64,000 bases of DNA, taken from assembly GCA_017993055.1 (NCBI GenBank), contig JAGONM010000002.1, positions 68,821 through 132,820 of the forward strand, written 5' to 3'. The stretch is from Armatimonadota bacterium (GTDB lineage: Bacteria; Armatimonadota; UBA5829; DTJY01). Below the pieces are notes generated by a model, which was given only the letters and a program-made list of their open reading frames with translations, was not told the origin of the DNA and ran no database searches. A program made the position numbers and the translations under genes. This document shows positions 6,838-63,980 of this stretch, in pieces (the stretch's first letter is position 1; each line of letters begins with the position of its first letter).

Positions 6838-6853
6838 GTGCTGCCGGCCCGTA

Positions 6854-6874
6854 CATCGCCACTGAGTGGCGATG
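6854..6874. repeat. GC-rich hairpin CATCGCCAC-TGA-GTGGCGATG downstream of the UDG-like gene
   Basis: Perfect 9-bp stem seen directly in sequence. No U-tract on the + strand, so function uncertain (weak terminator or islet boundary). Confidence 0.4.
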
Positions 6875-6886
6875 CAGAATGTCGCC

Positions 6887-6920
6887 AAAATGAAAACGGG
6901 ATGGAGTGCAACTCCATCCC
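6887..6920 (-). terminator. intrinsic terminator of the 14-kb hdr/glt/met operon (hairpin + U-tract on - strand)
   Basis: Perfect 10-bp stem GGGATGGAGT-GCA-ACTCCATCCC at 6898-6920. On the - strand it is followed immediately by GTTTTCATTTTGG (complement of 6887-6897). Lies 43 nt downstream of the metV stop. Confidence 0.55.
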
Positions 6921-6962
6921 GAACAACACCAGTCACACTCTACACTCACCACTCCCGACTCC

Positions 6963-7643
6963 TCACTTCTCAATCCGCTGGTCCTCGCGGACGATCTTCC
7001 TCGCGCCGCCTTCGTGCGACTTCGACCAGTTGGCGAGGGGAGCGGGCTCGGCAAGGCGGTCGAGTTGTCCGAGCGCCTTCAGGCGGTCGTAGATCAACTG
7101 CCAGGCGCAGTCCATGTCCGGGTCAACCTCGCATTTCCCCTCGCGAGCGCCGCCGCACGGGCCGCTGAGCTGTGCCTTCGAGCAGCGGGTGATCGGGCAG
7201 ACCGCGCCGTAGCTCCCGAGCACGCACGTCCCGCATCCGACGCACTTCTCGGTCCAGATTCCCTGCTGCTGCAGGAGTCCCATGAACAGCGTATCGAGTC
7301 CGGCGTAGACCGGCTTGTTCGGGAACCGCTCCGCGATCGCCTGAACGCCGACACCGCATCCGAGAGAGAGCACCGCGTCGGCCTCGAGTATCTCGTCGAG
7401 CGCGTCCTCGATGAACTGGTTCTCGCACTGGCGCTCGATTGTGGCCTCGACGATCGTCTGTTCCGACGCGCCCTTGTCCGTCTTGTTCGCGATCCTGAGC
7501 GCGGAACTGATCATCCCGACCTCGCGCTCTCCGCCCGCTAGGCAGACGGTTACGCAAGTGCCGCATCCGAGCACGAGCACGCGCGGGTAATCGGCGAGCA
7601 AGGCCTTCAGGTCCTGTATGTGTTTGCGGTGAGCAACGATCAT
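6963..7643 (-). CDS. metV: methylene-tetrahydrofolate reductase small subunit MetV-like (zinc-ribbon/MTHFR_C-type Cys-rich protein)
   Basis: Cys motifs LGCGTCVTVC, LGCGVGVQ, CVGCGTCV, CPITRCSKAQLSGPCGG...GKCEV are typical of the MTHFR C-terminal-like MetV of acetogen MetFV-HdrABC-MvhD clusters. Start moved from the track start (7679) to ATG at 7643, which has a perfect AAGGAG RBS 6 nt upstream and leaves the 7677-7699 hairpin intergenic. Confidence 0.65.
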   Translation of the reverse strand: MIVAHRKHIQDLKALLADYPRVLVLGCGTCVTVCLAGGEREVGMISSALRIANKTDKGASEQTIVEATIERQCENQFIEDALDEILEADAVLSLGCGVGVQAIAERFPNKPVYAGLDTLFMGLLQQQGIWTEKCVGCGTCVLGSYGAVCPITRCSKAQLSGPCGGAREGKCEVDPDMDCAWQLIYDRLKALGQLDRLAEPAPLANWSKSHEGGARKIVREDQRIEK

Positions 7644-7676
7644 GTCAGACTCCTTTGGGGGAGTGGTCGAGGCCGT

Positions 7677-7699
7677 CATGCTGAACCAAGTTCAGCATG
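7677..7699. repeat. near-perfect palindrome CATGCTGAAC-CAA-GTTCAGCATG in the mvhD-metV junction (intra-operon stem-loop / operator-like)
   Basis: 10-bp arms with 3-nt loop, read directly. A closely related motif recurs at 16584-16634 inside the same operon. Confidence 0.6.
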
Positions 7700-7715
7700 A
7701 CAACGTCCATTACTC

Positions 7716-8132
7716 CTATACTCCAACGCGGACCGGATTCGGTCCCAGGCGCTTGATTCTCTCCGTCATTGTCTCGACTATCTCCGCGAAGCGGTTGCCC
7801 TCAGCCGAAGAGAGGTTGAACATCTCCAGCCGATCGCCCTCGATGCCGGCTTCGGCGAGTACTTCCTTCGCCAGACCGACCCGCTTCTTCGCGTAGAGAT
7901 TGCCCTCCTCGAAGTGGCATCCTCCCTCGAGGCAGCCAGCGACTATCACGCCGTCCACGCCGTTCTCGAAGGCCTTCATGACGTAGTCTATGTCCACCTT
8001 CCCGGTGCACGGGAGGCGCAGGACGCGCACATTCGGCGGATACTGCAGGCGTGTCGAGCCGGCGAGGTCCGCCGCCGCGTATGCGCAGTAATGGCAGCAG
8101 AGAGCAAGGATTCTCGGCTCGAAATCAGTCAT
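7716..8132 (-). CDS. mvhD: MvhD/FlpD-like [2Fe-2S] electron-transfer subunit (methyl-viologen-reducing hydrogenase delta-subunit family)
   Basis: RILALCCHYCAYAAAD ... LPCTGKVD ... AGCLEGGCHF is the characteristic FlpD/MvhD Cys pattern. 138 aa. Start overlaps the hdrA stop. Confidence 0.8.
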   Translation of the reverse strand: MTDFEPRILALCCHYCAYAAADLAGSTRLQYPPNVRVLRLPCTGKVDIDYVMKAFENGVDGVIVAGCLEGGCHFEEGNLYAKKRVGLAKEVLAEAGIEGDRLEMFNLSSAEGNRFAEIVETMTERIKRLGPNPVRVGV

Positions 8133-11100
8133 CAGCGAGTCACCGCCTCCAGGAGGGCTTCGATTGCGGCCTCCAACTGTTTGTCAGTGAAGTTCCGGAG
8201 CTGGATCGCCTTCGCCGGGCAGGCCGCCGCGCAACTTCCGCAGCCCATGCACTTCGCCGCGACGATCTCCACCCTGTTCTTGCCGTTGACCTCGCTGATC
8301 TCGGGGGCGTCGTAAGGGCAGACCTTCACGCAGGTAAGGCATGAGACGCATTTCCGAACGTCCACGTGGCTCACCTGGCCACCGACGACCATAGTCTTCT
8401 TGCTCAGGATCGTCGCAGCGCGTCCCGCGGCCGCTCGTCCCTGCTGGATGTTCTCCATCGTCGTCTTCGGCGAGTGGGCGCTTCCGCAGAGGAAGATGCC
8501 CTCCGATGCGAAGTCCACCGGCCGAAGCTTCACATGCGCCTCGAGGAAGAACCCGTCCGCGTTGATCGGTATCTTCGCAAGCTCCGAGACGTCCACGTTG
8601 TCGGTCGCGGGCGAAGTGCCTGTCGAGAGAACGAGCAGATCGACCGCCAGGTCCATCGGGACGCCGAGGTCGGGCTCGGTGAACTTGATCCGGAGCGACC
8701 CATCGTTCGAGACCTCGGGCGGCTGCTCGGGATCGTACCGTACGAAGAGCACGCCGAGCTCACGCGCCTTCTGGTAGAGCAGTTCGTTCGATCCGTACGT
8801 CCGCATGTCGCGATAGAGAACGAGTACGTTCGCGCTCGGACTCTGTTCCTTGATGCGGATCGCGTTTCTCACGGCGTCAATGCAGCACATTCGGCTGCAG
8901 AACGGCCGCTCTTCATTGCGGGAGCCGACGCACTGGATCATGGCGACAGTCGGCTTGTCGGACAGCTTGAGATCGCCGGACGCGAGCCTCTTCTCCATCT
9001 CTCGCTGAGTCATTACTCTGGCGTCGTGGCCGTAGAGGTACTCGGTCGGGGCGTACTCCGTGCCGCCGACGGCGACTATCAGGACGCCGTGCTCGACCTT
9101 CTTCGGTCCCTCAGGCGCCTCAATCTCGCTCTCGAACTCCCCGACATGGCCCGAAAGCGTGTCGAGCTTCGACGAGAGATACGTCGAGATCAGCGGATGC
9201 TCCTCGACCATCTTGACCAGTCGTGCGAGCAGTTCCGTCTCCGCGGATCCCTTCAGTCGGCCCCCGAGCGCGTCGGTTTTCTCGACCAGATGCACGCGGA
9301 ATCCCTGATTCGCGAGGGAAATCGCTGCCGTCATTCCGCTCGGGCCGCCTCCGAGAACGAGCGCAGACTGAGTGACCGGCAGCTCCTCGCTCGTGAGCGA
9401 TGTCAATCTCGACGCGCGGGCGACGGCCATTCGCACGAGATCAATGGATTTCTCGGTCGCGGCTTCGGGATCGGCCGAATGCACCCACGAGCATTGGTCG
9501 CGGATGTTCGCCATGTCTACTAGGAACGGGTTCAGGCCGCACTCCCTCGCCGTATCTCGGAAAAGCGCCTCGTGAGTCCTCGGCGTGCAGGACGCGACGA
9601 GCAGGCGGTTGAGGTGATGCTCCTCGATCAATTCCTTGATTCGATCCTGCGTGTTGTCGGCGCAGGCGTAGATCGCGTTCTCGGCATAGGCGACGAACGG
9701 CATGCCTTTCGCCGCCTCGACTACCTTCTCGACATCGACGACCGACGAAATGTTCGTGCCGCAATGGCATATGAACACGCCGATCCTCGGCGGCGCATCG
9801 GCGAAATCGTGTTCGCGCGGATAAGTCTTCTCGACGACCATCGTGCCACGGGCGGGCGCAAGAAGCTCCATCGCCATCGCCGCAGCCGCGCTCGCCTGTG
9901 CGACGGTCTCGGGAATGTCCTTCGGCTCCTGGAACGCGCCGGCGACGAAGACACCGTTCCGAGACGTCGCCACCGTGCCGTCGGTCTGGCAGAATCCGCA
10001 CTCATTGATCTGGACGCCGACCGCGCCCGCGGTCCGGATCGCTTCATCGCTCGGCCTTATGCCGGTCGAGAGCACCACGATGTCGAACTCTTCGTCCACC
10101 GGGACTCCGTCCTTGATGTAGGAGAGCCTGAGCGACTTCGAGCCCGGCATCTCGACGACGCGAGAGACCATGCTCCGCTCGAACCGGACACCGTCGGTCT
10201 TCGCGCGCTCGAAGTATCTGTCGAAATCCTTGCCGTACGCGCGGATATCCGTGTAGAAGATCGTTGCGTCGAGTTCGGGGGAGTGGCTCTTCGCCACGAC
10301 CGATTCCTTGATCGCCGCCATGCAGCAGACCGCCGAGCAGTACGGCTTCTCGCTCGACACATCTCTTGAGCCGACGCACTGAATGAAGGCGATGCGCTTG
10401 GCCTCCTCGCCGTCGGACGGCCTGATCACGTGCCCGCCGAACGGCCCGCTCGCGGAGAGAATGCGCTCGAACTGTACGTTGGTGACGACGTTGGGATACC
10501 TCCCGAAGCCGAACTCGCCGCGCAGTCGAGCGTCGAACTCCTCGTATCCGGGCGACAGGATGACCGCACCGACCTCGATGTCGCGGACGGTGTCCTTCAT
10601 CTCGTGGTTGATCGCTTTGGGCTGGCACGCCTTCACACACTCCATGCACTCGCAGCAGATCCCGCAGGCGAGGCATCTCTCCGCCTCGGCGATCGCATCC
10701 GCGACCGCATAGCCCCTGGCGTGATCGGCCTCGACCCTGACGCTCTTCATGCGCTTCTCGCGGTACTGGGCTCTCTCCAGGTTGCGGTGATCGTCGTCGG
10801 TCCAGATGCGCGAATCGGGCTCGCGCCCCTCGGCGAGGTCTTCACCGTTGATGAACCTGTCTATTGATACGGCCGCCCGGATTCCCGCGCCGACCGCCTC
10901 GCTCAAGGTCCCTGCACCCGCGCACACGTCGCCGCCCGCGAAGATGCCCGGCTTGTTGGTGGCGAGGGTGATCGGGTCGACCTTGAGCAGGCCCCACTTG
11001 TTCAACTCGATCTCCGATCCCTCGCAGAATGCGAGGTCCGGCGTCTGGCCCGTCGCCACGACGGCCTCGTCGAATTCTATCATATGCTCGGAGCCCTCGA

Positions 11101-12517
11101 CGGGCTCGGGCCTTCTGCGGCCGGACGCGTCGCGCTCGTCAGAAAGCTTCATCTTGAGGCATTCGATCCCGGTGAGGACGCCGTCCTTGCCCACGAACCG
11201 CTTTGGGTTCGTGAGGAAGACGAACTTCACGCCCTCTTTGATCGCGTCCTCGACCTCCACCGGGTCGGCGGGCATCTCGCGCTTCGTCCGGCGGTAGACG
11301 ATCGTCACTTCGTTCGCGCCGAGCCGGAGCGCGGTGCGTGCGATATCCATTGCCGCGTTGCCAGCTCCGATGACCGCGACCTTCTTGCCGATCTCGACCT
11401 TCTCGCCGAGGTTGACCTGCTTGATGAACTCGATGCCGGGCCGAACGCCCTTGAGGTCTTCGCCCTCGATGCCGAGCCCCGAACTCTTCTGCGCGCCGAC
11501 TCCGACGAAGACTGCCTCGTAATCCTTCAGCAGGTCGTCGAGGGTCAGCCCGGGCCCGACCGGCGTGTCATACTTCACCTCGACGCCGAGATCGAGGATG
11601 TGGCCAATCTGGTCGTCAAGAATGTCTCTGGGAAGTCGGAAGTCGGGGATGCCGGCCCTCATCATGCCGCCCGGGACCGGAAGCGCCTCGAGGATCGTGA
11701 CGCCGTATCCCTTGCGCGCGAGGTAGTCCGCCGCGCCGAGTCCCGCCGGACCGCATCCGATGATCGCGACCCTCTCGGATCGGCTGACAGGAGCGTTCTC
11801 AGTGGTGCCGGCCGGAGCCTGATCGAGCGCGAACTTCTTCAGCTCGCGGATCGAGACCGGATCGCCGTATCGTCCCTGCTGGCATTCGGCCTCGCACGGG
11901 CGATGGCAGACGTAGCCGCAGATGAGGGGCAGGGGATTATCCTTGCGGATGATCTCCGCCGCCTCAGCGAACTTGCTCTTCGCGATCAACGCTATATACG
12001 CCTGAGCGTTCTGGCCCATTGGACACGCCGACACGCACGGCGGGCGCTTGCGTTTGTCGATGACGTGAGCGTTCGGGACCGCCTGCGCGGTAATCTTGTG
12101 GATCGCGGTCGTTTTGCTCAGCCCGCGGTTGAAGTCGTCCGGCACCATGACGGGGCAGACTTTCTCGCAGTCGCCGCACGCGTTGCACTTCTCGATGTCC
12201 ACGAAGCGGGCCTTCTGCCGCACCTTCACGCGAAACGCACCGGGCTCGCCGCTCATCTCTTCGATCTGTGACTGAGTAAGGATCTCGATGTTCAGATTGC
12301 GAGCTGCCTCGACGAGCTTCGGCGAGACGATGCAGGTGGCGCAGTCCCCGGTCGGGAAGGTCTTGTCGAGTTGCGCCATCTTCCCGCCGATGGTCGGCGA
12401 CTTCTCGACGAGGTAGACCCTGAACCCCGAGTTGGCGAGGTCGAGCGCCGACTGAATCCCGGCGATTCCGCCTCCACACACCATTACTGCGCCAACCGTA
12501 TTCTTGTCCGTACTCAT
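8132..12517 (-). CDS. hdrA: giant HdrA-type flavoprotein fusion: HdrA FAD/Fe-S module + embedded GltD/NfnB-like NAD(P)H-FAD module + second HdrA-type module + C-terminal 2x[4Fe-4S] ferredoxin
   Basis: N-terminal GAVMVCGGGIAGIQSALDLANSGFRVYLVEK (FAD). HdrA inserted Cys motif TFPTGDCATCI. GltD/NfnB-like block (DNPLPLICGYVCHRPCEAEC ... RVAIIGCGPAGLGAADYLARKG ... VAVIGAGNAAMDIAR). Two HdrA signatures FIQCVGSRDVSSEKPYCSAVCCMAA and MIQCVGSRNEERPFCSRMCCIDA. Second FAD fold ALVLGGGPSGMTAAISLANQG. C-terminal CVSCLTCVKVCP / CMGCGSCAAACP. 1461 aa. Confidence 0.85.
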   Translation of the reverse strand: MSTDKNTVGAVMVCGGGIAGIQSALDLANSGFRVYLVEKSPTIGGKMAQLDKTFPTGDCATCIVSPKLVEAARNLNIEILTQSQIEEMSGEPGAFRVKVRQKARFVDIEKCNACGDCEKVCPVMVPDDFNRGLSKTTAIHKITAQAVPNAHVIDKRKRPPCVSACPMGQNAQAYIALIAKSKFAEAAEIIRKDNPLPLICGYVCHRPCEAECQQGRYGDPVSIRELKKFALDQAPAGTTENAPVSRSERVAIIGCGPAGLGAADYLARKGYGVTILEALPVPGGMMRAGIPDFRLPRDILDDQIGHILDLGVEVKYDTPVGPGLTLDDLLKDYEAVFVGVGAQKSSGLGIEGEDLKGVRPGIEFIKQVNLGEKVEIGKKVAVIGAGNAAMDIARTALRLGANEVTIVYRRTKREMPADPVEVEDAIKEGVKFVFLTNPKRFVGKDGVLTGIECLKMKLSDERDASGRRRPEPVEGSEHMIEFDEAVVATGQTPDLAFCEGSEIELNKWGLLKVDPITLATNKPGIFAGGDVCAGAGTLSEAVGAGIRAAVSIDRFINGEDLAEGREPDSRIWTDDDHRNLERAQYREKRMKSVRVEADHARGYAVADAIAEAERCLACGICCECMECVKACQPKAINHEMKDTVRDIEVGAVILSPGYEEFDARLRGEFGFGRYPNVVTNVQFERILSASGPFGGHVIRPSDGEEAKRIAFIQCVGSRDVSSEKPYCSAVCCMAAIKESVVAKSHSPELDATIFYTDIRAYGKDFDRYFERAKTDGVRFERSMVSRVVEMPGSKSLRLSYIKDGVPVDEEFDIVVLSTGIRPSDEAIRTAGAVGVQINECGFCQTDGTVATSRNGVFVAGAFQEPKDIPETVAQASAAAAMAMELLAPARGTMVVEKTYPREHDFADAPPRIGVFICHCGTNISSVVDVEKVVEAAKGMPFVAYAENAIYACADNTQDRIKELIEEHHLNRLLVASCTPRTHEALFRDTARECGLNPFLVDMANIRDQCSWVHSADPEAATEKSIDLVRMAVARASRLTSLTSEELPVTQSALVLGGGPSGMTAAISLANQGFRVHLVEKTDALGGRLKGSAETELLARLVKMVEEHPLISTYLSSKLDTLSGHVGEFESEIEAPEGPKKVEHGVLIVAVGGTEYAPTEYLYGHDARVMTQREMEKRLASGDLKLSDKPTVAMIQCVGSRNEERPFCSRMCCIDAVRNAIRIKEQSPSANVLVLYRDMRTYGSNELLYQKARELGVLFVRYDPEQPPEVSNDGSLRIKFTEPDLGVPMDLAVDLLVLSTGTSPATDNVDVSELAKIPINADGFFLEAHVKLRPVDFASEGIFLCGSAHSPKTTMENIQQGRAAAGRAATILSKKTMVVGGQVSHVDVRKCVSCLTCVKVCPYDAPEISEVNGKNRVEIVAAKCMGCGSCAAACPAKAIQLRNFTDKQLEAAIEALLEAVTR

Positions 12518-13384: not shown

Positions 13385-13944
13385 CGCCGTGCCCTCCTTG
13401 CGTTCCGGACTCTCTCAAAGATCGAGGCCACCGCGCCGCGTCCCTCGGTCGATGGCGGGAGAAGCTTCATCTTGCCCTTCAGCAACATCGACGGGAACTT
13501 GGCGAGATCGCTCCAGAAGTCTCTCGCCCGGAGCTTGTATACGGCCATGAGCCCGAGTTCATACGACCGGCCGAACCGCTTCACCGAGCCGAGCATCGTC
13601 TCGTTGAAGATCTTCACGCGTTCCAGGTCGCCGGGCGCCGACTCCGCCATCGAGCGCAGAGCATCCACCAGGGCAGGGGTATCAACCTGCATCGGGCAGC
13701 GCGACACGCAGGTGTTGCACGATATGCACGCCCAGATCGCCTTGCTCTCGAGGATCTGCTTCTTCATCCCCAGCGCGGCCATCCGGTTGAGCTGATGCGG
13801 AAGGATATCCGTCTCTTGGCGCATCGTGCAGCCCGACGAGCATCTTCGGCACTGCAGGCAGAGCGTCAGGTTCAGCCGCCCTTCAGGGTCGACCTCCCTG
13901 AGCAGGCCATTGTCTATCCTCTCAATGGTGATTGTCTTACTCAT
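13381..13944 (-). CDS. hdrC: heterodisulfide reductase subunit C-like (2x[4Fe-4S] ferredoxin)
   Basis: CLQCRRCSSGCTM and CISCNTCVSRCPM motifs. Start refined to ATG at 13944 (MSKTITIE...), which overlaps the upstream gene stop by ATGA. The longer track ORF would run 111 nt into the upstream CDS. Confidence 0.75.
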   Translation of the reverse strand: MSKTITIERIDNGLLREVDPEGRLNLTLCLQCRRCSSGCTMRQETDILPHQLNRMAALGMKKQILESKAIWACISCNTCVSRCPMQVDTPALVDALRSMAESAPGDLERVKIFNETMLGSVKRFGRSYELGLMAVYKLRARDFWSDLAKFPSMLLKGKMKLLPPSTEGRGAVASIFERVRNARRARR

Positions 13945-16558
13945 CTGATCCCTTACCAGCGTTCGAATCATCGTCCACGTGGCCGACGACCCCGACCTTC
14001 GACGCCGGAGCGACCTTTCGGTAGACCTTCGCCGGCTCGCGAAGTTCTCCGTCAACCGTCAGCAGCCGGGAGACCGGGATGCCGAAGAGTTGCTCGTTGT
14101 CCTCGAGATACGGCAGGATCAGCTTCCAGTCCGCATCTGACAACTCGCGGTACTCGCCGCCGTTGAGCTGTTCGTCGTCGCACAGCCGATGCGGGTCTCG
14201 GACGTAGATCGCTCCACCCGAGGCCAGCGAGAACAGGTTCGAGCCGGAGTACGGCGTCTCCAGGTCGGTGACGTTGCCGTCATCATCGAACTTGATGCCG
14301 TTCAGTATGACGAACCCCCCGCCCGTGAGCGGATCGCCCGCCATGAATGATTCCGCCAGGAAGTCGAGGCATGTGCCGTTGATGACCGCTTTCGGCCGTC
14401 CCACGCCGTTGATCAACGGTCGTCCGGCGGCGTTGCCCTTGACGAAGACCTTGCCGCCCTTCGCGCCGTACATGAACGTCTGGCCGACGTCGCCGTGGAT
14501 CACGAGGCGGCCTTCCTTGATGATCTGGCCGACCTGGTCTTGGGCGTTCCCATGAACGATGACCGTCATGCCGTCGAGGCCCGAGCCTAGGTAGTCGCCG
14601 GTGCTCCCGTAGGCGTCTATGGTGACATCGTGCGTCGCCGGGCCGAACCCGCAGCCGAGGAACCTCTGCCCCACGTAGCCGTGGCAGATGAACCGCTTCC
14701 ATCCCAGTTCCTCAGCTCTGACCACCAGCCGGGAGTCGCAGTCGTCGCCCTCGGGCGGGAAGTCGTGCGCGTTCACGACGAGCACTTCCTCCGGGCCAGT
14801 GGGGGCGCGGAGCGCATCCCTGGTCTCCCAGTCGATGCGCGCATATACTGAAGAGGGTTCTCCGGCGATAGACGGCATGGACTCGAAGACCGCTCTCAGG
14901 CATCCGTTCAGCAGCTGGAGGATCGTGCTTCGCTTGGTCGTTCCGGTCGGATACCGGCGGTCGATCAAGAGAGTCAGTCCGTTGATCGCGGCCGTGCGCT
15001 CGGAGTCAGTCATCGGACCGGCGGCCAACTCGGAGCACAGGCTCACCAATCCCTTCATCTCCGCCGTCAGAGCCGCCGACTTCCCGGCCTCGAAAAGCGC
15101 GAATCCGGTCTCATCAGCAAGAATCTCGGCGGTCGCGTGTCCCAGTCTGCAATCCGCGATCTGCAGTCTGCAGTCCGGCCTCTCGCCCGCCTTGACTGTC
15201 TTCTGCCTTCCAAACTTATCCACGCAGGAGAGCTTGTAGCCGCCGTTGCCGTCCGGACTCACGTTGAAGATGAACGATCCGCCGTCGGTGTAGCTTCCTC
15301 CGCGGGCGTTCCAGTACTCATCGGCGACCGTGCAGAACCGACTGTCTTCCTTCGCCAGGCTCGCGAGTGTGGCGTCGATGGCTTGCTTTTCGCTGCAGAC
15401 AAGGCCGATCTGCACCTCGCCGTCCTGGATCGCGAACACCTGAGGCCGAAGCATCGCCGTGTCCGTGATGCCTAGGAGTTGGAACGCATCGTTCGCCGCG
15501 TCGTTGCGTGCAATGATGAAGAACCACGGACCGTCCGGCGAGCCGTGGATGTGGCTCGTCTGGATGCGGTGGTACGGGTCCTTCTTCGCTTCGGGCAGCA
15601 TATCGAAGTCGCGCTCCATCGTAGGCGCAAGGCCCTCGATGATGTACTCCAGCGGGTACTTGTACACACGGTTCCAGAGGTCAAACACGAGGATCGAGAC
15701 CTCGGTGTCCGTCAGGAAGAGCGGCCTGATGTTCCTCTGAGCCAAGTACTCGGTTACCGAATAGTAGTTCGCGAAGTCGCCGTTGTGGACCAGCGCCTCG
15801 TTCAGCCCGCAGAACGGGTGAGCGCCGCCGGGATGCCAGACTCGACCGCGAGTCGGGTATCGCTGGTGGGCGATCCAGACGTGCGCCTTGAAATCCTCGA
15901 GCTTGTAGTATGTGACGATCTGCTCGGCATAGCCGACGATCTTGAGGATCAGCATGTTCCGTCCCTGCGAGAGGACGAAAGCCTGCTTGTCACCGAGCGA
16001 TGCGTAGTACTTCGAGTTGAGCTCGAACGAGTTCTGGTTGACGAACTCATCCTCGATGTCTCGTGCCGGCAGTCCGGCCAGGCCGCGCTCGTCGGCAAAC
16101 TTCTTGATGGCATCGGGCTTCGCGCGCACGAAGTACTGCATGACGTCCGGCGGCTGGACCTCCATGCCCGGGATATCGTGGAAATCCTCGATTCGCGGGA
16201 TCATCTGCGCGTGGTCGACGTTGAACATCGGGTTGATGAACTCGGCTTCGACGGCGTTACGGCAGGCAGGATCGAGAAGTGCGATCTGCAGGATGTAGTC
16301 ATCCCGCAGAATCTCTTTCGAGACCCCAAGCCGCTCGGCATCGAGCCCGACGGCCGCGATGCCTCCGCCCTTACCGTTGCCGCGGTTGTGCATCTGGACA
16401 GACGGCTCGTAGATGTGCCTGCCGCTTACCGGGATGCTGCACGCGAACCCGGTGACCCCGCAGCCGCCTTCCTCCTCGGTGTGAGGAGGCTGCTGGCATT
16501 TCCATCCGTCCATCATCCAGCGTCGGCTCTCTAAGATTCTCTTCGCGAAATCGTTCAT
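13937..16558 (-). CDS. glutamate-synthase-like fusion: N-terminal class-II glutamine amidotransferase domain (GltB1-type) + C-terminal GXGXG domain (GltB3-type)
   Basis: N-terminal GGCGVTGFAC (Ntn Cys) ... HQRYPTRG ... LVHNGDFANY are GATase-2 motifs. C-terminal GCGFGPATHDVTIDAYGSTGDYLGSGLDGMTVIVHGNAQDQVGQIIKEGRLVIHGDVGQTFMYGAKGGKVFVKGNAAGRPL is the glutamate-synthase GXGXG domain. 873 aa. Confidence 0.75.
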   Translation of the reverse strand: MNDFAKRILESRRWMMDGWKCQQPPHTEEEGGCGVTGFACSIPVSGRHIYEPSVQMHNRGNGKGGGIAAVGLDAERLGVSKEILRDDYILQIALLDPACRNAVEAEFINPMFNVDHAQMIPRIEDFHDIPGMEVQPPDVMQYFVRAKPDAIKKFADERGLAGLPARDIEDEFVNQNSFELNSKYYASLGDKQAFVLSQGRNMLILKIVGYAEQIVTYYKLEDFKAHVWIAHQRYPTRGRVWHPGGAHPFCGLNEALVHNGDFANYYSVTEYLAQRNIRPLFLTDTEVSILVFDLWNRVYKYPLEYIIEGLAPTMERDFDMLPEAKKDPYHRIQTSHIHGSPDGPWFFIIARNDAANDAFQLLGITDTAMLRPQVFAIQDGEVQIGLVCSEKQAIDATLASLAKEDSRFCTVADEYWNARGGSYTDGGSFIFNVSPDGNGGYKLSCVDKFGRQKTVKAGERPDCRLQIADCRLGHATAEILADETGFALFEAGKSAALTAEMKGLVSLCSELAAGPMTDSERTAAINGLTLLIDRRYPTGTTKRSTILQLLNGCLRAVFESMPSIAGEPSSVYARIDWETRDALRAPTGPEEVLVVNAHDFPPEGDDCDSRLVVRAEELGWKRFICHGYVGQRFLGCGFGPATHDVTIDAYGSTGDYLGSGLDGMTVIVHGNAQDQVGQIIKEGRLVIHGDVGQTFMYGAKGGKVFVKGNAAGRPLINGVGRPKAVINGTCLDFLAESFMAGDPLTGGGFVILNGIKFDDDGNVTDLETPYSGSNLFSLASGGAIYVRDPHRLCDDEQLNGGEYRELSDADWKLILPYLEDNEQLFGIPVSRLLTVDGELREPAKVYRKVAPASKVGVVGHVDDDSNAGKGSDE

Positions 16559-16583
16559 GTTATCTCACTACGACCGTCGTGCC

Positions 16584-16634
16584 GAACTTGGTTCAGCATC
16601 CACGGGATTGATCCTGAGTCAAGTTCAGGATGAC
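16584..16634. repeat. two copies of the GAACTTGGTTCAGCAT / CAAGTTCAGGATGAC palindromic motif family in the gltB2-gltB1/3 junction
   Basis: 16584-16599 GAACTTGGTTCAGCAT is identical over 16 nt to the reverse complement of the 7677-7699 element. 16611-16634 ATCCTGAGTCAAGTTCAGGATGAC contains CAAGTTCAGGATGAC, versus CAAGTTCAGCATGAC at 7688-7702. Both sit in a 91-nt gap between translationally uncoupled genes of the same operon. Confidence 0.6.
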
Positions 16635-16649
16635 GGTCCTTGCCGTTCG

Positions 16650-18188
16650 TCAACGCTCGTAGTCCGCATGCTCGAGGAGATCGGATCTCCCTCGAAGCTC
16701 CTTGATATCCTTCATGCCGAACCTGCTCAGTATGTCCACGAGTTGAGTGCGCCACGCGTTCAGCATGTTGATCAGCCGCTGCGTCGCCCACTCGAGCGTC
16801 ATCTTCTCGACCATCTCCGGGTTCGTGGATGCGATGCCTCGCGCGCATCCCTTGCCGCTCTCGCACCTGGCGCAGCGTATACATCCCAGTGCGACCATCT
16901 CCGGCGTGCCTATCACCACACCGTCCGCCCCGAGGGCGATCGCCTTCGCCAGGTCCCACGGCGTGCGCACCCCGCCTCCGACGATGAAGGCCACCTCGTC
17001 CCGGATGCCTTCCTCGACCAGGAAAGTGTGCACCTTGGAGATCGCGTATTCTATCGGCATGGCAATGTTTTTCTTTGCGATCTCTGGGGCAGCTCCCGTC
17101 CCGCCATAACTCCCGTCGAGGTGGATGATGTTTGCGCCTGCGTGATAGGAGCCGACGGCAACCATGTCCACGTCAACCGGGGTCGAGACCTTGCACGAGA
17201 CGAGCGCTCGCGGGTTGATGTGCTTTATCCAGTCCAGATGCTTCTTGTGGTCCTCGACGGAGTAGACGCTGTGGAAAGGGAACGGCGAGAAGAGCGGGGT
17301 CCCCGGCACTGCCTCGCGCATCAGGGCGACGGCGGGCGTATTCTTGTCGCCGAGCAGATGTCCGCCGAGGCCCGGCTTCGCTCCCTGCGCGTACTTGAAC
17401 TCGACAATCGGCGCCATACCGATCGTCTCCTCGCGCACGCCGAACAGGCCCGTCGCCACCTGGGTGATCATGTGCTCGCTGTACGGGAACAGCCGCTCGG
17501 GATAGCCTCCCTCGCCTGTACAACTGAACGTGTTCCATGCCATCGCCGCCCGGGCCTTGGCCAGCATGGTGATGGGGCTGACGGAGCCGAACGACATGCC
17601 GCCGCCGTAGACGGGGATGTCTATGGTGATCTCCGGCCTGCCGTCCTTGCGTTTGTTCAGTTCGATCGAGGTGTTGATCTCGGACGGGTCGGTACGCGGG
17701 CCGCTCTCGGGGAACAGGAACCGCATTCGGTCGAAGCCGCCCCCGGAATTGCCGAACTCCGCCTCCAGTTCTCCGTCGGGCACCTGCCCGGTCTCGGCCA
17801 TGTGCCAGTTGCAGAGTATCAGGTCGGCGGTCCACCGGTAGTCCCCGAGCGACTTGTAGATCGGGGTAGTCTCGATGCGGAGCGCCTTCTGAGGGCAGAT
17901 TACGACGCAGTACGTCCCGTTCGCCTTGCACTTCTCGGCGGTGCACAGATGATCCAACCCGCTGAGGAAGTCCACGTAGCCTTCTCGGCGCACGTGAACG
18001 CCGCGCGGGCAGACCTCGATGCACTTCCCGCACTTGATGCATGCCGCGCTCCGTTGGATGCGGTACTTGCTGAGGTTGTTCCGGAACCTGTCGGGCGCCG
18101 GACGGACCTCGCGCTTCGGGGGGTATTCCACCCCGAGATCCGCAACTTTCCCCGTATGTATCCTGCCTGGATCTATGGTCGAAGCCAT
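16650..18188 (-). CDS. archaeal-type glutamate synthase FMN/Fe-S subunit (GltB2-like) with N-terminal 2x[4Fe-4S] ferredoxin domain
   Basis: N-terminal CIKCGKCIEVCP ... CVVICP. FMN/synthase domain motifs GGGMSFGSVSPITMLA, IIHLDGSYGGTGAAPE, IVGGGVRTPWDLAKAIALGADGV, and a Cys cluster CIRCARCESGKGC. 512 aa. Confidence 0.8.
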   Translation of the reverse strand: MASTIDPGRIHTGKVADLGVEYPPKREVRPAPDRFRNNLSKYRIQRSAACIKCGKCIEVCPRGVHVRREGYVDFLSGLDHLCTAEKCKANGTYCVVICPQKALRIETTPIYKSLGDYRWTADLILCNWHMAETGQVPDGELEAEFGNSGGGFDRMRFLFPESGPRTDPSEINTSIELNKRKDGRPEITIDIPVYGGGMSFGSVSPITMLAKARAAMAWNTFSCTGEGGYPERLFPYSEHMITQVATGLFGVREETIGMAPIVEFKYAQGAKPGLGGHLLGDKNTPAVALMREAVPGTPLFSPFPFHSVYSVEDHKKHLDWIKHINPRALVSCKVSTPVDVDMVAVGSYHAGANIIHLDGSYGGTGAAPEIAKKNIAMPIEYAISKVHTFLVEEGIRDEVAFIVGGGVRTPWDLAKAIALGADGVVIGTPEMVALGCIRCARCESGKGCARGIASTNPEMVEKMTLEWATQRLINMLNAWRTQLVDILSRFGMKDIKELRGRSDLLEHADYER

Positions 18189-18200
18189 CTAAAACCCCTG

Positions 18201-19556
18201 TCAGATCTGAACTTTCCGTGTTCCGAAGATCGGGCCGAAGCAGTCCCGTTCCAGGTCCTCGAAGAACATCGCACGGCCGACTTCCCCGCGGAGCCGTCGA
18301 ACCTCGCGTATGCCCATCGCCCCCATCATCTCCAGCAACTGGCTGTGCCACGCACCGATCAGGTTCACGATCCTCTGAACGGCGTAGTCGTGATCAATGT
18401 CCGCCAGCCCGACCGGGCACTGGATACCTTCGGTGCAGTTCCTGCACACCCGGCACTCGAGGGCAATCATCAGCGGGATGTCAACTGCAACCGCATCGGC
18501 GCCGCAGATTATCGTTTTTGCCACATGTTCGGCGAGCGCGATCCCACCACTGGAGACGATCGTAACGGCATCCCGGTTTCCACGTTCGACGAAAGCCTGG
18601 TGGAGCGCCTGCACGGCCCTTGTGATGTGAGTTCCGTCGGTTGCGTTCCCGTGCCAGTCGGCACAGGAGTGGATCGCATCTACGCCTTGTTCCGTGAGTT
18701 CGAGTGCCCGTGCGATCGAGTCGGCACCGAGCGGTAGACGCACCATGGCGACCAGATCACCGTTGGCCTCTCTTGCCTGTCGGACCTGTCGGACCACGTC
18801 GGACGAGTCGGACCATTCCACGAGTGGCGCGCCCGAAGGGATGGCGCCGTCTCTCACGTGCGGTGCGGCCGCATCGTGATCCATCTGCGTATCGGTTACT
18901 GCCCGTGTTCCCAGCGCCTCGGCGGCGTCGAGCATCGCTCTCGTCACCTGCTCCGACGGGGTGTGCCAGGGCAGGAGGTCGAAAAGGATCGGAATCGGCA
19001 CGTCAATCTGTGTCGGATACGGCTCAGCAAGCGAACCATCGGGGTTGAACGAGAGCGACGGGAGTTTCCTGCCGATCTCGACCTGCGTGCTGATGTACTC
19101 CCTGCCGTGGATTCCGTCGCGCGTCGGGCGGACGATTTCCGACATGTCGGTCAGGATCGCGTCGAACCCCGGGCCCATGAACGGGCCGGCGTAACCTGCG
19201 CCCGACACGGGTATCCTGCCGGTCTCTGCCTGGAACCAGGTGCCGGATATGATGTCCGGCGTCCAGACCCCGTCGCCAAGCCCCTCGAACTCCGGGTTGA
19301 CCTCCTGGGTCAGCAGGCCTTTTGTGCAGGATTGCACGCAGCAGAGGCATCCCTTGCACTCGTAGAGGTAGTCAACGTAGTCGCTTGCGCCCTGAAGCCT
19401 GTCGCGCTCACCGTCGTATACGCTGTAAGCGCACTCCCGCTTCACGCAGTTGTGGCAGGCGGAGCAGTCCTCTCTCCAGTCAACTATCCCGTATTTGCCG
19501 ATCACCTTGTGTTTCGGCGGCGCCTGCGCAGTGTGGATATGGTACTTGGCCGGCAT
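18201..19556 (-). CDS. divergent GltB2-like paralog (ferredoxin + glutamate-synthase-like TIM barrel with degenerate FMN/active-site motifs)
   Basis: Same architecture as 16650-18188 (N-terminal CSACHNCVKREC ... CKGCLCCVQSC, C-terminal CRVCRNCTEGIQC, SSGGIALAEHVAKTIICGADAV). The GGGMSFG and DGxxGGTG motifs are not recognisable. Confidence 0.55.
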   Translation of the reverse strand: MPAKYHIHTAQAPPKHKVIGKYGIVDWREDCSACHNCVKRECAYSVYDGERDRLQGASDYVDYLYECKGCLCCVQSCTKGLLTQEVNPEFEGLGDGVWTPDIISGTWFQAETGRIPVSGAGYAGPFMGPGFDAILTDMSEIVRPTRDGIHGREYISTQVEIGRKLPSLSFNPDGSLAEPYPTQIDVPIPILFDLLPWHTPSEQVTRAMLDAAEALGTRAVTDTQMDHDAAAPHVRDGAIPSGAPLVEWSDSSDVVRQVRQAREANGDLVAMVRLPLGADSIARALELTEQGVDAIHSCADWHGNATDGTHITRAVQALHQAFVERGNRDAVTIVSSGGIALAEHVAKTIICGADAVAVDIPLMIALECRVCRNCTEGIQCPVGLADIDHDYAVQRIVNLIGAWHSQLLEMMGAMGIREVRRLRGEVGRAMFFEDLERDCFGPIFGTRKVQI

Positions 19557-19557
19557 G

Positions 19558-20406
19558 CTACTTCAGACCCTTCAGAACTTCAAGGGCGAGTGTGGGATTT
19601 CCGCCGATCACGTGGATGCCGCGGACGCCTTCGATGCCCTTGAGGAAGGCGGCCGTCTTCGCGGCCGAATCGGCCCCGACCGCCGAGGTATCCGGTATGT
19701 CGAGCCCCCGGAATTTCGCGACCATTGCCGACGCCTCCTCCGCAGACTCCAGCGGCATGACGGAAGCGATCACGCACATCTTCTCATGGATGCCGCGCGC
19801 TCTGACGAGGCCCATCCACTCCTCGAAGCGATTGGTGTTGAATACGGGTTGGGTGATGACGAAATCGGCTCCGAGAGCTGCCGCCCTGTCGAGTGTGATG
19901 ACCTGCAGATCAAGCGGGTCCGAGAACGGGTTGGTCTCCACCCCGAGCAGCATCTCGACCGGAGCATCCAGGGGTTCACCGTCGGAGAGTCTTCCGCCCC
20001 TTCTCATGGTGTCGGCCACTTGAACGAGCTGCAGGGGGTCTATGTCGTAGACTCCTCTTGCGTCGCCGGCCGATGTCAAAGTCTGATGCTTGCCTGCGAG
20101 GCAGAGGATGTTGCGTATGCCCATCGAGGCCGCCCCCAGCAAGGTTGACTGGAGGGCGATCCGGTTGAGGTCGCGTGTCAGGATGTGTAGGATCGGCTCG
20201 GCTCCCGCTTCCAGGACATGCCCGCATGCGGCGAGGCTGCTCATGCGGGGGCCGTCCTCGCTCTCGATGACGTTGACTGCGTCCACGAGAGCGTTGAGCC
20301 GGGTCGCGCACTCCTTGATTCCGGCCGCGTCCGCGCCTCTCGGCGGGTGGCACTCGCCCGTGACTACGAACTTACCGCCCTTTACTGCCTGCGCCAGATC
20401 ACTCAT
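19558..20406 (-). CDS. metF: 5,10-methylenetetrahydrofolate reductase catalytic subunit (acetogen/MetF-type)
   Basis: About 280 aa TIM barrel with FVVTGECHPP, LLGVETNPF, DFVITQPVFNTNRFEEW motifs typical of MTHFR. 2-nt gap to the upstream gene. Confidence 0.8.
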   Translation of the reverse strand: MSDLAQAVKGGKFVVTGECHPPRGADAAGIKECATRLNALVDAVNVIESEDGPRMSSLAACGHVLEAGAEPILHILTRDLNRIALQSTLLGAASMGIRNILCLAGKHQTLTSAGDARGVYDIDPLQLVQVADTMRRGGRLSDGEPLDAPVEMLLGVETNPFSDPLDLQVITLDRAAALGADFVITQPVFNTNRFEEWMGLVRARGIHEKMCVIASVMPLESAEEASAMVAKFRGLDIPDTSAVGADSAAKTAAFLKGIEGVRGIHVIGGNPTLALEVLKGLK

Positions 20407-40638: not shown

Positions 40639-40674
40639 AGATAGTCCTCCAAGAAGCAGATAACGGTACGGCCT

Positions 40675-40739
40675 GTCATTCTGAGCGAAGCGAAGAAATC
40701 CGAGATTGCCGCGAGATCCTTCGCTTCGCTCAGAATGAC
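40675..40739. repeat. 21-bp perfect inverted repeat GTCATTCTGAGCGAAGCGAAG ... CTTCGCTTCGCTCAGAATGAC (23-nt spacer) between sulfatase and GH172 genes
   Basis: Read directly. No U-tract on either side, so not a canonical terminator. Candidate operator, REP-like element or RNA-processing hairpin. Confidence 0.6.
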
Positions 40740-40752
40740 CATTCGACGAAGA

Positions 40753-63652: not shown

Positions 63653-63738
63653 GGGGATGTGGCGGAATGGCAGACGCGCTTGGTTGAGGGCCAAGTGCCC
63701 GCAAGGGCATGAGAGTTCAACTCTCTCCATCCCCACCA
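63653..63738 (+). tRNA. tRNA-Leu (anticodon GAG), type II with long variable arm, CCA encoded
   Basis: Acceptor GGGGATG/CATCCCC. Anticodon stem CTTGG/CCAAG with loop TTGAGGG. Long variable arm GTGCCCGCAAGGGCAT. T-arm GAGAG-TTCAACT-CTCTC. Discriminator A + CCA. Confidence 0.85.
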
Positions 63739-63746
63739 GGCCTGAC

Positions 63747-63821
63747 GGGCGATTGGCTCAGGGGGAGAGCGCTTCCTTCACACGGAAGAGGTCGTTGGTT
63801 CAAATCCAACATCGCCCACCA
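63747..63821 (+). tRNA. tRNA-Val (anticodon CAC), CCA encoded
   Basis: Acceptor GGGCGAT/ATCGCCC. D-arm GCTC...GAGC. Anticodon stem CTTCC/GGAAG with loop TTCACAC. T-arm GTTGG-TTCAAAT-CCAAC. Discriminator A + CCA. Confidence 0.85.
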
Positions 63822-63827
63822 ACAGAT

Positions 63828-63902
63828 GCGGGAGTAGTTCAGTGGTAGAGCACCTGCTTCCCAAGCAGGTTGTCGCGGGTTCGAATCCCGTCTCCCGCTC
63901 CA
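63828..63902 (+). tRNA. tRNA-Gly (anticodon CCC), CCA encoded
   Basis: Acceptor GCGGGAG/CTCCCGC. D-arm TAGTTCAGTGGTAGAGCA. Anticodon stem CCTGC/GCAGG with loop TTCCCAA. T-loop TTCGAAT. Discriminator U, as expected for Gly. Confidence 0.85.
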
Positions 63903-63905
63903 TGA

Positions 63906-63980
63906 GGCGTGGTACCCAAGTGGTAAGGGAGCGGTCTGCAAAACCGTTATGCACGAGTTCGAATCTCGTCCACGCCTCCA
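63906..63980 (+). tRNA. tRNA-Cys (anticodon GCA), CCA encoded
   Basis: Acceptor GGCGTGG/CCACGCC. Anticodon stem GCGGT/ACCGT with loop CTGCAAA. T-loop TTCGAAT. Discriminator U, as expected for Cys. Only 3 nt after tRNA-Gly. Confidence 0.8.

Follow-up and report, generated by a model that had tools for sequence, protein, structure and literature searches.

Does the palindrome that separates mvhD from metV in an operon of an Armatimonadota bacterium serve that operon as a control element, or is it repeat DNA inserted between two of its genes? The question arises from a preliminary description of the window (the whole stretch of 64,000 nucleotides analysed here), in which the palindrome was treated as a feature of this operon and explained either as a processing or stability stem-loop setting subunit stoichiometry or as a binding site for a dimeric regulator. 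The genes concerned and their flanking elements are the following:

19558-20406, minus strand, MTHFR gene
18201-19556, minus strand, Glu_synthase-like gene
16650-18188, minus strand, Glu_synthase-like gene
16559-16649, minus strand, spacer of 91 nt between the Glu_synthase-like gene at 16650-18188 and the GXGXG gene; L075 and L076 lack this spacer and have the two genes overlapping
13937-16558, minus strand, GXGXG gene
same operon, minus strand, Fer4 gene and CCG (HdrB-like) gene
8132-12517, minus strand, gene for an HdrA-like fusion of 1461 aa
7716-8132, minus strand, mvhD (FlpD family; Pfam PF02662, E = 5e-50), with its UAG stop codon 13 nt ahead of the tag in the repeat unit (REP) described below
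7644-7715, minus strand, mvhD-metV intercistronic spacer of 72 nt, present in this species only, with a new Shine-Dalgarno sequence AAGGAG at 7650-7655
6963-7643, minus strand, metV (DUF5981, MTHFR C-terminal domain protein), 226 aa, from Pfam, gene calls and orthologue alignment
6886-6921, minus strand, intrinsic terminator of the operon, downstream of metV, made up of an 11-bp hairpin (CGGGATGGAGT/ACTCCATCCCG) and then UUUUCAUUUU

Comparison of sequences places the start of metV at the ATG at 7643, because an AAGGAG Shine-Dalgarno sequence stands 6 nt upstream of it, gene calls on ten independent contigs give a protein of 226 aa, and the N-terminus read from there, MIVAHRK, aligns with every orthologue. 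The start favoured from the beginning thus holds, and the annotation of the window is settled on this point; a longer metV ORF (start 7679) would begin within the 3' arm of the palindrome, which itself favours the start at 7643. The mvhD-metV gap had also been described as the only sizeable untranslated one at the 3' end of the operon; in the operon as a whole it has a counterpart, the 91-nt gap at 16559-16649.

A predicted hairpin with a tag at both ends and a related inverted dimer

The sequence CATGCTGAAC-CAA-GTTCAGCATG was read at 7677-7699, exactly where it had been reported. The palindrome is real, and its arms are longer than the 10 bp first ascribed to them: perfect arms of 12 bp, GTCATGCTGAAC (7675-7686) and GTTCAGCATGAC (7690-7701), enclose a 3-nt centre. 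This junction and the 91-nt spacer hold the following elements:

7674-7702, no strand assigned, REP unit of the CGTC-2 type with a tag at both ends, from sequence, architecture scan and RNA fold
7660-7716, minus strand, imperfect stem extension GGAGU...ACUCC of 57 nt, with 27-nt arms that are 78% complementary, beginning at the mvhD stop codon
16575-16602, plus strand, degenerate canonical CGTC-2 unit, CGTC / GTGCCGAA / CTTGG / TTCAGCAT / CCA
16608-16635, minus strand, second unit of the dimer, CGTC / ATCCTGAA / CTTGA / CTCAGGAT / CAA

On the plus strand, 7674-7702 reads CGTC / ATGCTGAA / CCAAG / TTCAGCAT / GACA and, on the minus strand, which corresponds to the mRNA, TGTC / ATGCTGAA / CTTGG / TTCAGCAT / GACG. 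The unit is a perfect palindrome with 12-bp arms because its tail is replaced by the complement of the tag. The RNA hairpin of the core has a predicted folding energy of -19.5 kcal/mol (z = -7.3), and the 101-nt junction including the outer stem one of -38.8 kcal/mol (z = -3.3). No U-tract follows the hairpin on either strand and a terminator scan flagged nothing at 7674-7702; by contrast, the canonical terminator at 6886-6921 has UUUUCAUUUU after its hairpin. Transcription most likely reads through the element.

At the second site, the two units form an inverted dimer (16575-16635) with the tags outward, the tails inward and a 5-nt spacer (16603-16607). It is predicted to fold either as two small hairpins or as one long one, at -29.3 kcal/mol, and the same layout was found in L073, L059, L035, L062, L017, L064 and L081. 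Recurrence of the palindrome core at 16584-16634 had been noticed earlier and is borne out by a 21-mer match with two mismatches at 16579-16599 and an exact CAAGTTCAGSATGAC at 16620-16634. The suspicion that palindrome and repeats together were unlikely by chance proved sound as well: none of 100 dinucleotide-preserving shuffles reached three matches to the 21-mer, and none of 100 reached five matches to the 15-mer. In the 64-kb window there are three units at two sites, both of which belong to this operon; the other 51 kb contain no unit. Each site is flanked by tandem genes and begins 13-14 nt past the upstream stop codon, a distance typical of REPs.

Related operons lack the element at both junctions

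The palindrome was absent at both junctions in five orthologous operons of related Armatimonadota. In L078, whose MetV is 88% identical, a gap of 2 nt separates mvhD from metV; L075, L076 and L077 (76-79%) have an overlap of 4 nt between the two genes; and in L074 (87%) and L080 (80%), the junction holds a gene for a four-helix-bundle protein (23S_rRNA_IVP) with flanking repeats of its own. L075 and L076 also have overlapping genes at the second junction, and L074 and L077 hold unrelated inserts there. Since the relatives lack the palindrome and their genes overlap or abut, these comparisons point to a species-specific insertion; from the same arrangement, the ancestral state would be one of coupled, overlapping genes, with the REPs gained in this species. 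The two odd gaps in an otherwise tightly packed operon would then be repeat insertions and not regulatory sites.

Within the species, ten contigs from several studies are 98.6-100% identical to the window, and the 72-nt spacer is 100% identical in all of them. At about 1% divergence, this identity is compatible with constraint, and over 72 nt it is not significant. The dimer shows two differences between strains, and one of them disrupts a stem pair; this dimer is now decaying.

The same sequence occurs beside unrelated genes in many phyla

The pattern TCATNCTGAACNNNGTTCAGNATGA, with 20 fixed bases, was scanned across 185,579 species represented by one genome each, and 63 loci were found against an estimated one or so expected by chance. 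The hosts include many Sphingomonadaceae, several Bacteroidota, Sulfurovum and another member of the Campylobacterota, a Treponemataceae MAG (Spirochaetota), a Thermodesulfovibrionia genome (Nitrospirota), a Syntrophorhabdus MAG and a Falkowbacteria MAG (Patescibacteria). An identical 27-mer is present at 14 loci of other phyla; in the form GTCATGCTGAAC-YWR-GTTCAGCATGAC, the 27-mer occurs in Armatimonadota, Bacteroidota, Alphaproteobacteria and Desulfobacterota-type MAGs. Some hosts carry more than one copy: Novosphingobium sp. ZW T3_23 has three loci, as does Sphingomonas jinjuensis, and a single Sphingobium replicon has four. A BLAST search against plasmids turned up copies on replicons of Sphingobium, Novosphingobium, Sphingomonas and Sulfurovum. 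Of these copies, 9 of 10 overlap no annotated feature; the one in Sulfurovum mangrovi sits inside an annotated 4Fe-4S gene.

Positions that the pattern left free proved to be structured. The base before TCAT is G at 57 of 62 loci and the one preceding it is C or T at all 62. At 50 of 62 genome loci (C:G 25, G:C 22, T:A 3), the two bases of the free stem pair are complementary, and another stem pair covaries, AT changing to AC with a compensating change of AT to GT. Outer stems far longer than chance accompany about 10 of the 62 genome copies, and several loci also hold single-tagged units and dimers arranged as in the window. In the transcript, the loop of both-ends-tagged copies reads CAA in five cases and TTG in four, and which way the central triplet points does not depend on the direction of transcription.

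By crude ORF calls, 59 of the 63 loci are intergenic, 20 of them convergent, 27 tandem and 3 divergent, and 4 lie in ORFs; the distance to a stop codon is often 10-30 nt. The flanking genes are unrelated housekeeping genes, such as hutU and hutH, mutS and pcm, or nikR, and a search over the 63 loci for a recurrent neighbour gene or transposase returned none beyond syntenic sphingomonad genes. One intercistronic copy, 12 nt past a stop codon, is kept across Sphingorhabdus and Parasphingorhabdus. Searches of Rfam at gathering and permissive thresholds gave only chance hairpins (the first helix of Enterococcus RefA5 and miRNA precursors), and a full-text literature search for the literal sequence strings gave only primers. 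Resemblances to the DNA uptake sequences of Neisseria, to CsrA sites and to the 5' end of 16S rRNA were set aside as coincidental.

Viral contigs provided an independent sample. IMG/VR was scanned with GTCATNCTGAANNNNNTTCAGNAT, in which the first base of the tag, the loop, one pair of the stem and the tail are unconstrained, and yielded at least 120 loci with at least 164 units; canonical CGTC-2 units are common in these contigs. Among the 164 viral units listed, the tags are CGTC in 86 and TGTC in 61, the tails CCA (48), CTC (46), CTT (24) and CTA (23), and the loops CTTGT (71), CTCGT (22), CTTGA (13) and CTTGG (7). The free pair is complementary in 149 of these 164 units, with three pair types. 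Neither the both-ends-tagged form nor a GAC tail was found among the 164 viral units listed, which makes 7674-7702 an uncommon, atypical member of its kind. Among the matches listed, canonical units show a weak orientation bias (49 versus 30 loci, p = 0.04). A tailed-phage structural module was seen to hold dense CGTC-2 units in one orientation.

Probable assignment to the CGTC-2 family

REPs with a terminal CGTC, often altered to TGTC or CCTC, were described by Di Nocera, De Gregorio and Rocco (2013, BMC Genomics 14:522, PMC3733652). As set out in that survey, they have stems of 8-9 bp starting with A, T, loops of 4-5 nt and 3-nt tails near CCA; they occur mostly as inverted dimers, often of unlike units, some of which have lost the spacer and adjacent bases; and they are found between tandem or convergent ORFs, as a rule within 20 bp of the upstream one, with no transposase associated in that account. 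The hosts given there are Proteobacteria (mainly alpha, e.g. Sphingobium, Sphingomonas, Novosphingobium), Chlorobi, Bacteroidetes, Spirochaetes and Thermotogae, and Sulfurovum is among them. Over-long outer stems like those seen in our scan are likewise reported for some CGTC families (PMC3733652).

In the window, tags are found at 7674-7677 (CGTC, plus strand), 7702-7699 (TGTC, minus strand), 16575-16578 (CGTC, plus strand) and 16635-16632 (CGTC, minus strand). The stem ATGCTGAA/TTCAGCAT is perfect, ATCCTGAA/CTCAGGAT has one mismatch, and GTGCCGAA/TTCAGCAT is degenerate, with G in the first position, one wobble and one mismatch. The loops are CTTGG, CTTGG and CTTGA. As to tails, the dimer has CCA at 16600-16602 and CAA in its other unit, and 7674-7702 holds a paired GAC. 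Both sites are intergenic, between tandem genes and near the upstream 3' end.

Within the superfamily, the assignment to CGTC-2 is based on geometry, one encoded peptide and one orthologous gene. Additional file 3 of the same survey (PMC3733652) lists as CGTC-2 the REP-encoded peptide RHSELVSGS, residues 155-163 of the ferredoxin-like Sulfurovum protein SUN_0512, and back-translation of this peptide gives CGTC/ATTCTGAA/CTTGT/TTCAGGAT. In the Sulfurovum mangrovi orthologue of SUN_0512, a dimer occupies the same residues as RHSELVSGS: its first unit is CGTC/ATTCCGGG/CTTGA/CTTGGAAT/CTC, followed by 14 nt and by a second unit that is the reverse complement of TGTC/ATCCTGAA/CTTGA/TTCAGGAT/CTC. To the extent that the published description covers the family, an 8-bp stem with a 5-nt loop, the peptide and the orthologous gene fit CGTC-2. 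A canonical CGTC-2 unit would thus consist of a CGTC or TGTC tag, the stem ATSCTGAA, the loop CTTGN, the complementary stem and a 3-nt tail. The published copy number for S. chlorophenolicum (22 singles and 9 dimers in 4.4 Mb, about 40 units; PMC3733652) agrees with the low density seen here.

Combined, these observations indicate, with a probability that we put at about 85%, that the element is a REP of the CGTC-tagged superfamily, family CGTC-2, inserted twice, and thus a repeat that does not belong to the operon. Since it matches a known repeat family and was inserted in one species only, the palindrome is, as judged from these comparisons, ordinary repeat DNA and not a conserved operon control element. 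The preliminary description had named a REP-like dispersed repeat as the outcome that would speak against its view, and this is what was found: the sequence matches a published family and its dispersal is seen in other hosts. Its idea of a feature of this operon does not survive the absence of the palindrome from five orthologous operons and the presence of the 27-mer beside unrelated genes elsewhere. The proposed processing or stability stem-loop fares better in part, in that the predicted hairpin is strong and an effect on stability or expression is plausible, as for any REP; what falls away is the operon-specific role.

Weighing of other explanations

An RNA element specific to this operon, which would set the stoichiometry of Hdr/MvhD/MetVF-type subunits by RNase processing or segmental stabilization, could be read from the intercistronic position at two junctions of one operon, the strong predicted hairpins, the spacer that is identical in ten contigs from several studies and the copy retained across Sphingorhabdus and Parasphingorhabdus. 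We consider it very unlikely, as all five related operons lack the element and have overlapping or abutting genes, the same sequence sits in unrelated contexts in many phyla, and the dimer is gaining stem-breaking substitutions between strains; moreover, a conserved complex would not require a device found in a single species to set its stoichiometry. For an intrinsic terminator or attenuator that would lower transcription of metV relative to the upstream genes, there is a stable hairpin directly past a gene end, and the family shows enrichment between convergent genes; in E. coli, BIME-type REP clusters can attenuate transcription. However, the absence of a U-tract on both strands and the silent scan speak against a Rho-independent terminator, and metV, the essential partner of metF in such operons, has its own canonical terminator at 6886-6921 and would be severed from its only apparent promoter by termination at the REP. 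Termination or attenuation at this site is therefore quite unlikely.

A palindromic double-stranded site for a dimeric transcription factor would account for the perfect 12-bp arms around a 3-bp centre and for a triplet orientation indifferent to transcription. Yet the site lies within the operon, past the 3' end of a gene, as loci of this kind elsewhere do (20 convergent and 3 divergent among the 63); no promoter-like site was found nearby by scanning, and no gene family recurs beside the loci. Canonical units are asymmetric, with the tag at one end and the tail at the other, and the stems covary, with G:C, C:G and T:A alternating at one pair and AT to AC matched by AT to GT at another. On account of the post-gene position, the asymmetry and the stem covariation, an operator was rejected, and the regulator site put forward at the outset is very improbable. 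Insertion of units into pre-existing hairpins was also considered, in view of the outer stems, much longer than chance, of about 10 of the 62 genome copies.

A different account of how the DNA arrived would make the insert, of roughly 61-70 nt, a miniature transposon with a 9-bp target-site duplication, GGAGTATAG / GGAGTCTGA. Filled and empty sites can be compared here: the empty site in L078 reads GGAGCTTAG-AT-ATG, and the filled site has GGAGTATAG to the left and GGAGTCTGA to the right of the insert. Such a duplication would imply a mobilizer of the DDE type rather than of the HUH/RAYT type. However, its two copies agree at only 7 of 9 positions, a similarity that may be convergent because GGAG is needed on the right as a Shine-Dalgarno sequence and on the left in codons; no comparable duplication accompanies the second insertion, and JGI metagenomes, searched for longer copies of the insert, yielded none. 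The duplication is suggestive and, coming from one site only, carries little weight; a miniature transposon is unlikely.

Possible origin and effects on the mRNA

As a REP of the CGTC-2 family, the element would have entered this Armatimonadota species twice, each time at a junction whose genes had overlapped or abutted in the ancestor. One insertion would be the inverted dimer at 16575-16635, and the other what is now a tail-replaced unit at 7674-7702. The latter may plausibly derive from a dimer that collapsed by deletion between its near-identical units, with the outer tags and one loop kept.

REP hairpins are said, after work by Higgins and colleagues in 1988, to stop 3'-to-5' exonucleases and so to stabilize the mRNA segment upstream of them. 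By blocking such enzymes, the hairpin at 7674-7702 would stabilize the upstream hdr/mvhD part of the transcript relative to metV. With the insertion, mvhD and metV would also have lost their ancestral translational coupling, and translation of metV would start independently at the new AAGGAG. A REP that follows a stop codon by less than 16 nt can reduce translation of the upstream gene through ribosome stalling (Liang, Rudd and Deutscher, 2015, as reported in PMC12306157), and because the hairpin is within this distance of the mvhD stop codon, mvhD output may drop slightly through such stalling. These effects on the mRNA would be by-products of a largely neutral repeat and not evolved control of the operon; an effect on stoichiometry is plausible as a consequence of the element, not as the reason for its existence.

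The locus offers a clean example of a REP splitting a gene pair that would ancestrally have been overlapping and translationally coupled. Armatimonadota is added to the hosts of CGTC-type REPs as a new phylum, not among the five given for these repeats in the published survey (PMC3733652), and our scans also indicate Nitrospirota, Patescibacteria, Desulfobacterota-type MAGs and phage contigs as carriers. The closely related empty site may be of some help in understanding how CGTC REPs move. The identical 27-mer across phyla and the dense, one-orientation phage units could point to a further reading, which we hold to be unlikely: a factor that many hosts share, or that phages carry, would keep CGTC REPs uniform, and the both-ends-tagged variant would be more than a decayed repeat. 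If this were true, the pair of filled and empty sites, together with the 9-bp target duplication that it may contain, would give a starting point for studying CGTC REP insertion.

Comparison with known repeat families

The GTAG REPs and REPINs of E. coli, Pseudomonas and Stenotrophomonas are likewise short tagged palindromes that occur as singlets and inverted dimers and have the same preference for sites past the 3' ends of genes; their effects on mRNA decay and, at less than 16 nt from a stop codon, on translation are documented (PMC12306157). By contrast to GTAG REPs, which flank RAYT genes, CGTC REPs have no known transposase according to their description (PMC3733652). Membership of the GTAG REP/REPIN-RAYT system was rejected for the window element, which has the tag CGTC/TGTC and not GTAG; no recurrent neighbour gene was found over the 63 loci.

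Closer to the window units are CGTC-1, CGTC-3 and CGTC-4 (Neisseria dRS3, Rickettsia RPE-6 and RPE-4, and the 'VIAGLDPAIH' repeats of Rhizobiales), which, so far as they are characterized in the published description, share the tag, the AT start of the stem and the tail. CGTC-3 and CGTC-4 also have the CTTGA loop found in the window, as back-translated from VIAGLDPAI and VIPWLDHGI. Their stems differ from those of the window, being ATTCCCGC in CGTC-1, ATTGCCGGG in CGTC-3 and ATTCCGTGG in CGTC-4; moreover, the stem has 9 bp in CGTC-3 and CGTC-4, and the loop has 4 nt in CGTC-1.

With CGTC-2, as far as the published description of that family extends, the likeness comprises the tag, the 8-bp stem starting with AT, the 5-nt loop, the CCA-like tail in the units of the dimer and the inverted arrangement of that dimer, and also the low copy number and the 3'-end position between tandem or convergent genes; in keeping with the published lack of an associated transposase, no transposase recurs over the 63 loci. 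Sphingomonads, Sulfurovum, Bacteroidetes and Spirochaetes are hosts common to the published family and to the loci of our scan. The element at 7674-7702 departs from the family in its Armatimonadota host and in being tagged at both ends, without an unpaired tail, whereas its stem and loop sequence agrees with the CGTC-2 peptide RHSELVSGS.

Small elements at the operon junctions

The operon that carries the CGTC-2-type REP in its mvhD/metV spacer ends in a canonical intrinsic terminator, located together with a second hairpin in the 125-nt gap separating metV from a convergent plus-strand gene. In addition, a 21-codon ORF could be read from the sequence across the REP, ending 1 nt ahead of the metV start codon. 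Since its ATG lies just 2 nt past an AGGAG motif, this ORF is probably not translated.

Features of the window
6851-6876: second hairpin, 9 bp, CATCGCCAC/GTGGCGATG
6886-6921, minus strand: intrinsic terminator of the operon, 11-bp stem followed by UUUUCAUUUU
7645-7710, minus strand: 21-codon ORF, MDVVMLNLVQHDGLDHSPKGV*
40674-40740: 65-nt hairpin with perfect 21-bp arms, between two minus-strand genes
63653-63977: four clustered tRNA genes, at the window's right-hand end

Some orthologous operons of related Armatimonadota were found to carry other inserts at their junctions. In two relatives (L074 and L080) the mvhD/metV junction is occupied by a small four-helix-bundle gene, which in L080 matches PF05635 (23S_rRNA_IVP). 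The L074 insert, bounded by inverted repeats of the GGGTTATGGGTT / AACCCATAACCC type, appears from its sequence to hold a gene of the same kind. L074 also contains a long inverted repeat between the HdrA-like gene and mvhD, which from its sequence looks like a GTAG-type REP dimer, and in a third relative, L077, CACGAAA-type repeats flank the insert between the Glu_synthase-like and GXGXG genes. Different small mobile elements have repeatedly colonised these operon junctions.

Inserts in related Armatimonadota
L074 8890-8980: long inverted repeat, ends GTAGGAGG...CCTCCTAC
L074 9407-10001: insert at the mvhD/metV junction
L080 2232-2836: insert at the mvhD/metV junction, with the four-helix-bundle gene at 2295-2789
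L077 585-884: insert at the Glu_synthase-like/GXGXG junction

REP copies in other bacteria and in viral contigs

Four genomes of Sphingorhabdus and Parasphingorhabdus keep one orthologous intercistronic REP copy (L018 1738-1762; L038 3005-3029; L054 1385-1409; L056 3370-3394), preceded by a stop codon at 12 nt and followed by the next start at about 24 nt. The sole variable position inside the REP unit of these copies is the central loop base (T, C, A and C, respectively).

Among the matches listed in a scan of IMG/VR, two viral contigs carried canonical CGTC-2 units on one strand only: nine in IMGVR_UViG_3300028845_000195 (loci L127 and L104) and eight in IMGVR_UViG_3300010223_000008 (loci L120 and L151). 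This amounts to about one unit per 3 kb, bacterial chromosomes being far sparser. At L127, the units are placed between the terminase, portal, scaffold and major head genes, which run antisense to the tag strand. The presence of REPs within a phage structural operon may bear on the spread of the CGTC-2 family.

A hairpin possibly related to CGTC-2 units

The hairpin at 40674-40740 consists of TGTC-ATTCTGAGCGAAGCGAAG, 23 nt and the reverse complement, with a predicted folding energy of -41 to -44 kcal/mol. An Rfam search gave no match for it, and matches resembling its arms were found in plasmids of Hymenobacter, Calothrix, Novosphingobium and Palleronia. Like CGTC-2 units, it bears a TGTC tag and contains GTCATTCTGA, and each of its arms shows the 28-nt unit geometry of CGTC-2. 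Two units from a related family may make up this hairpin as a dimer.
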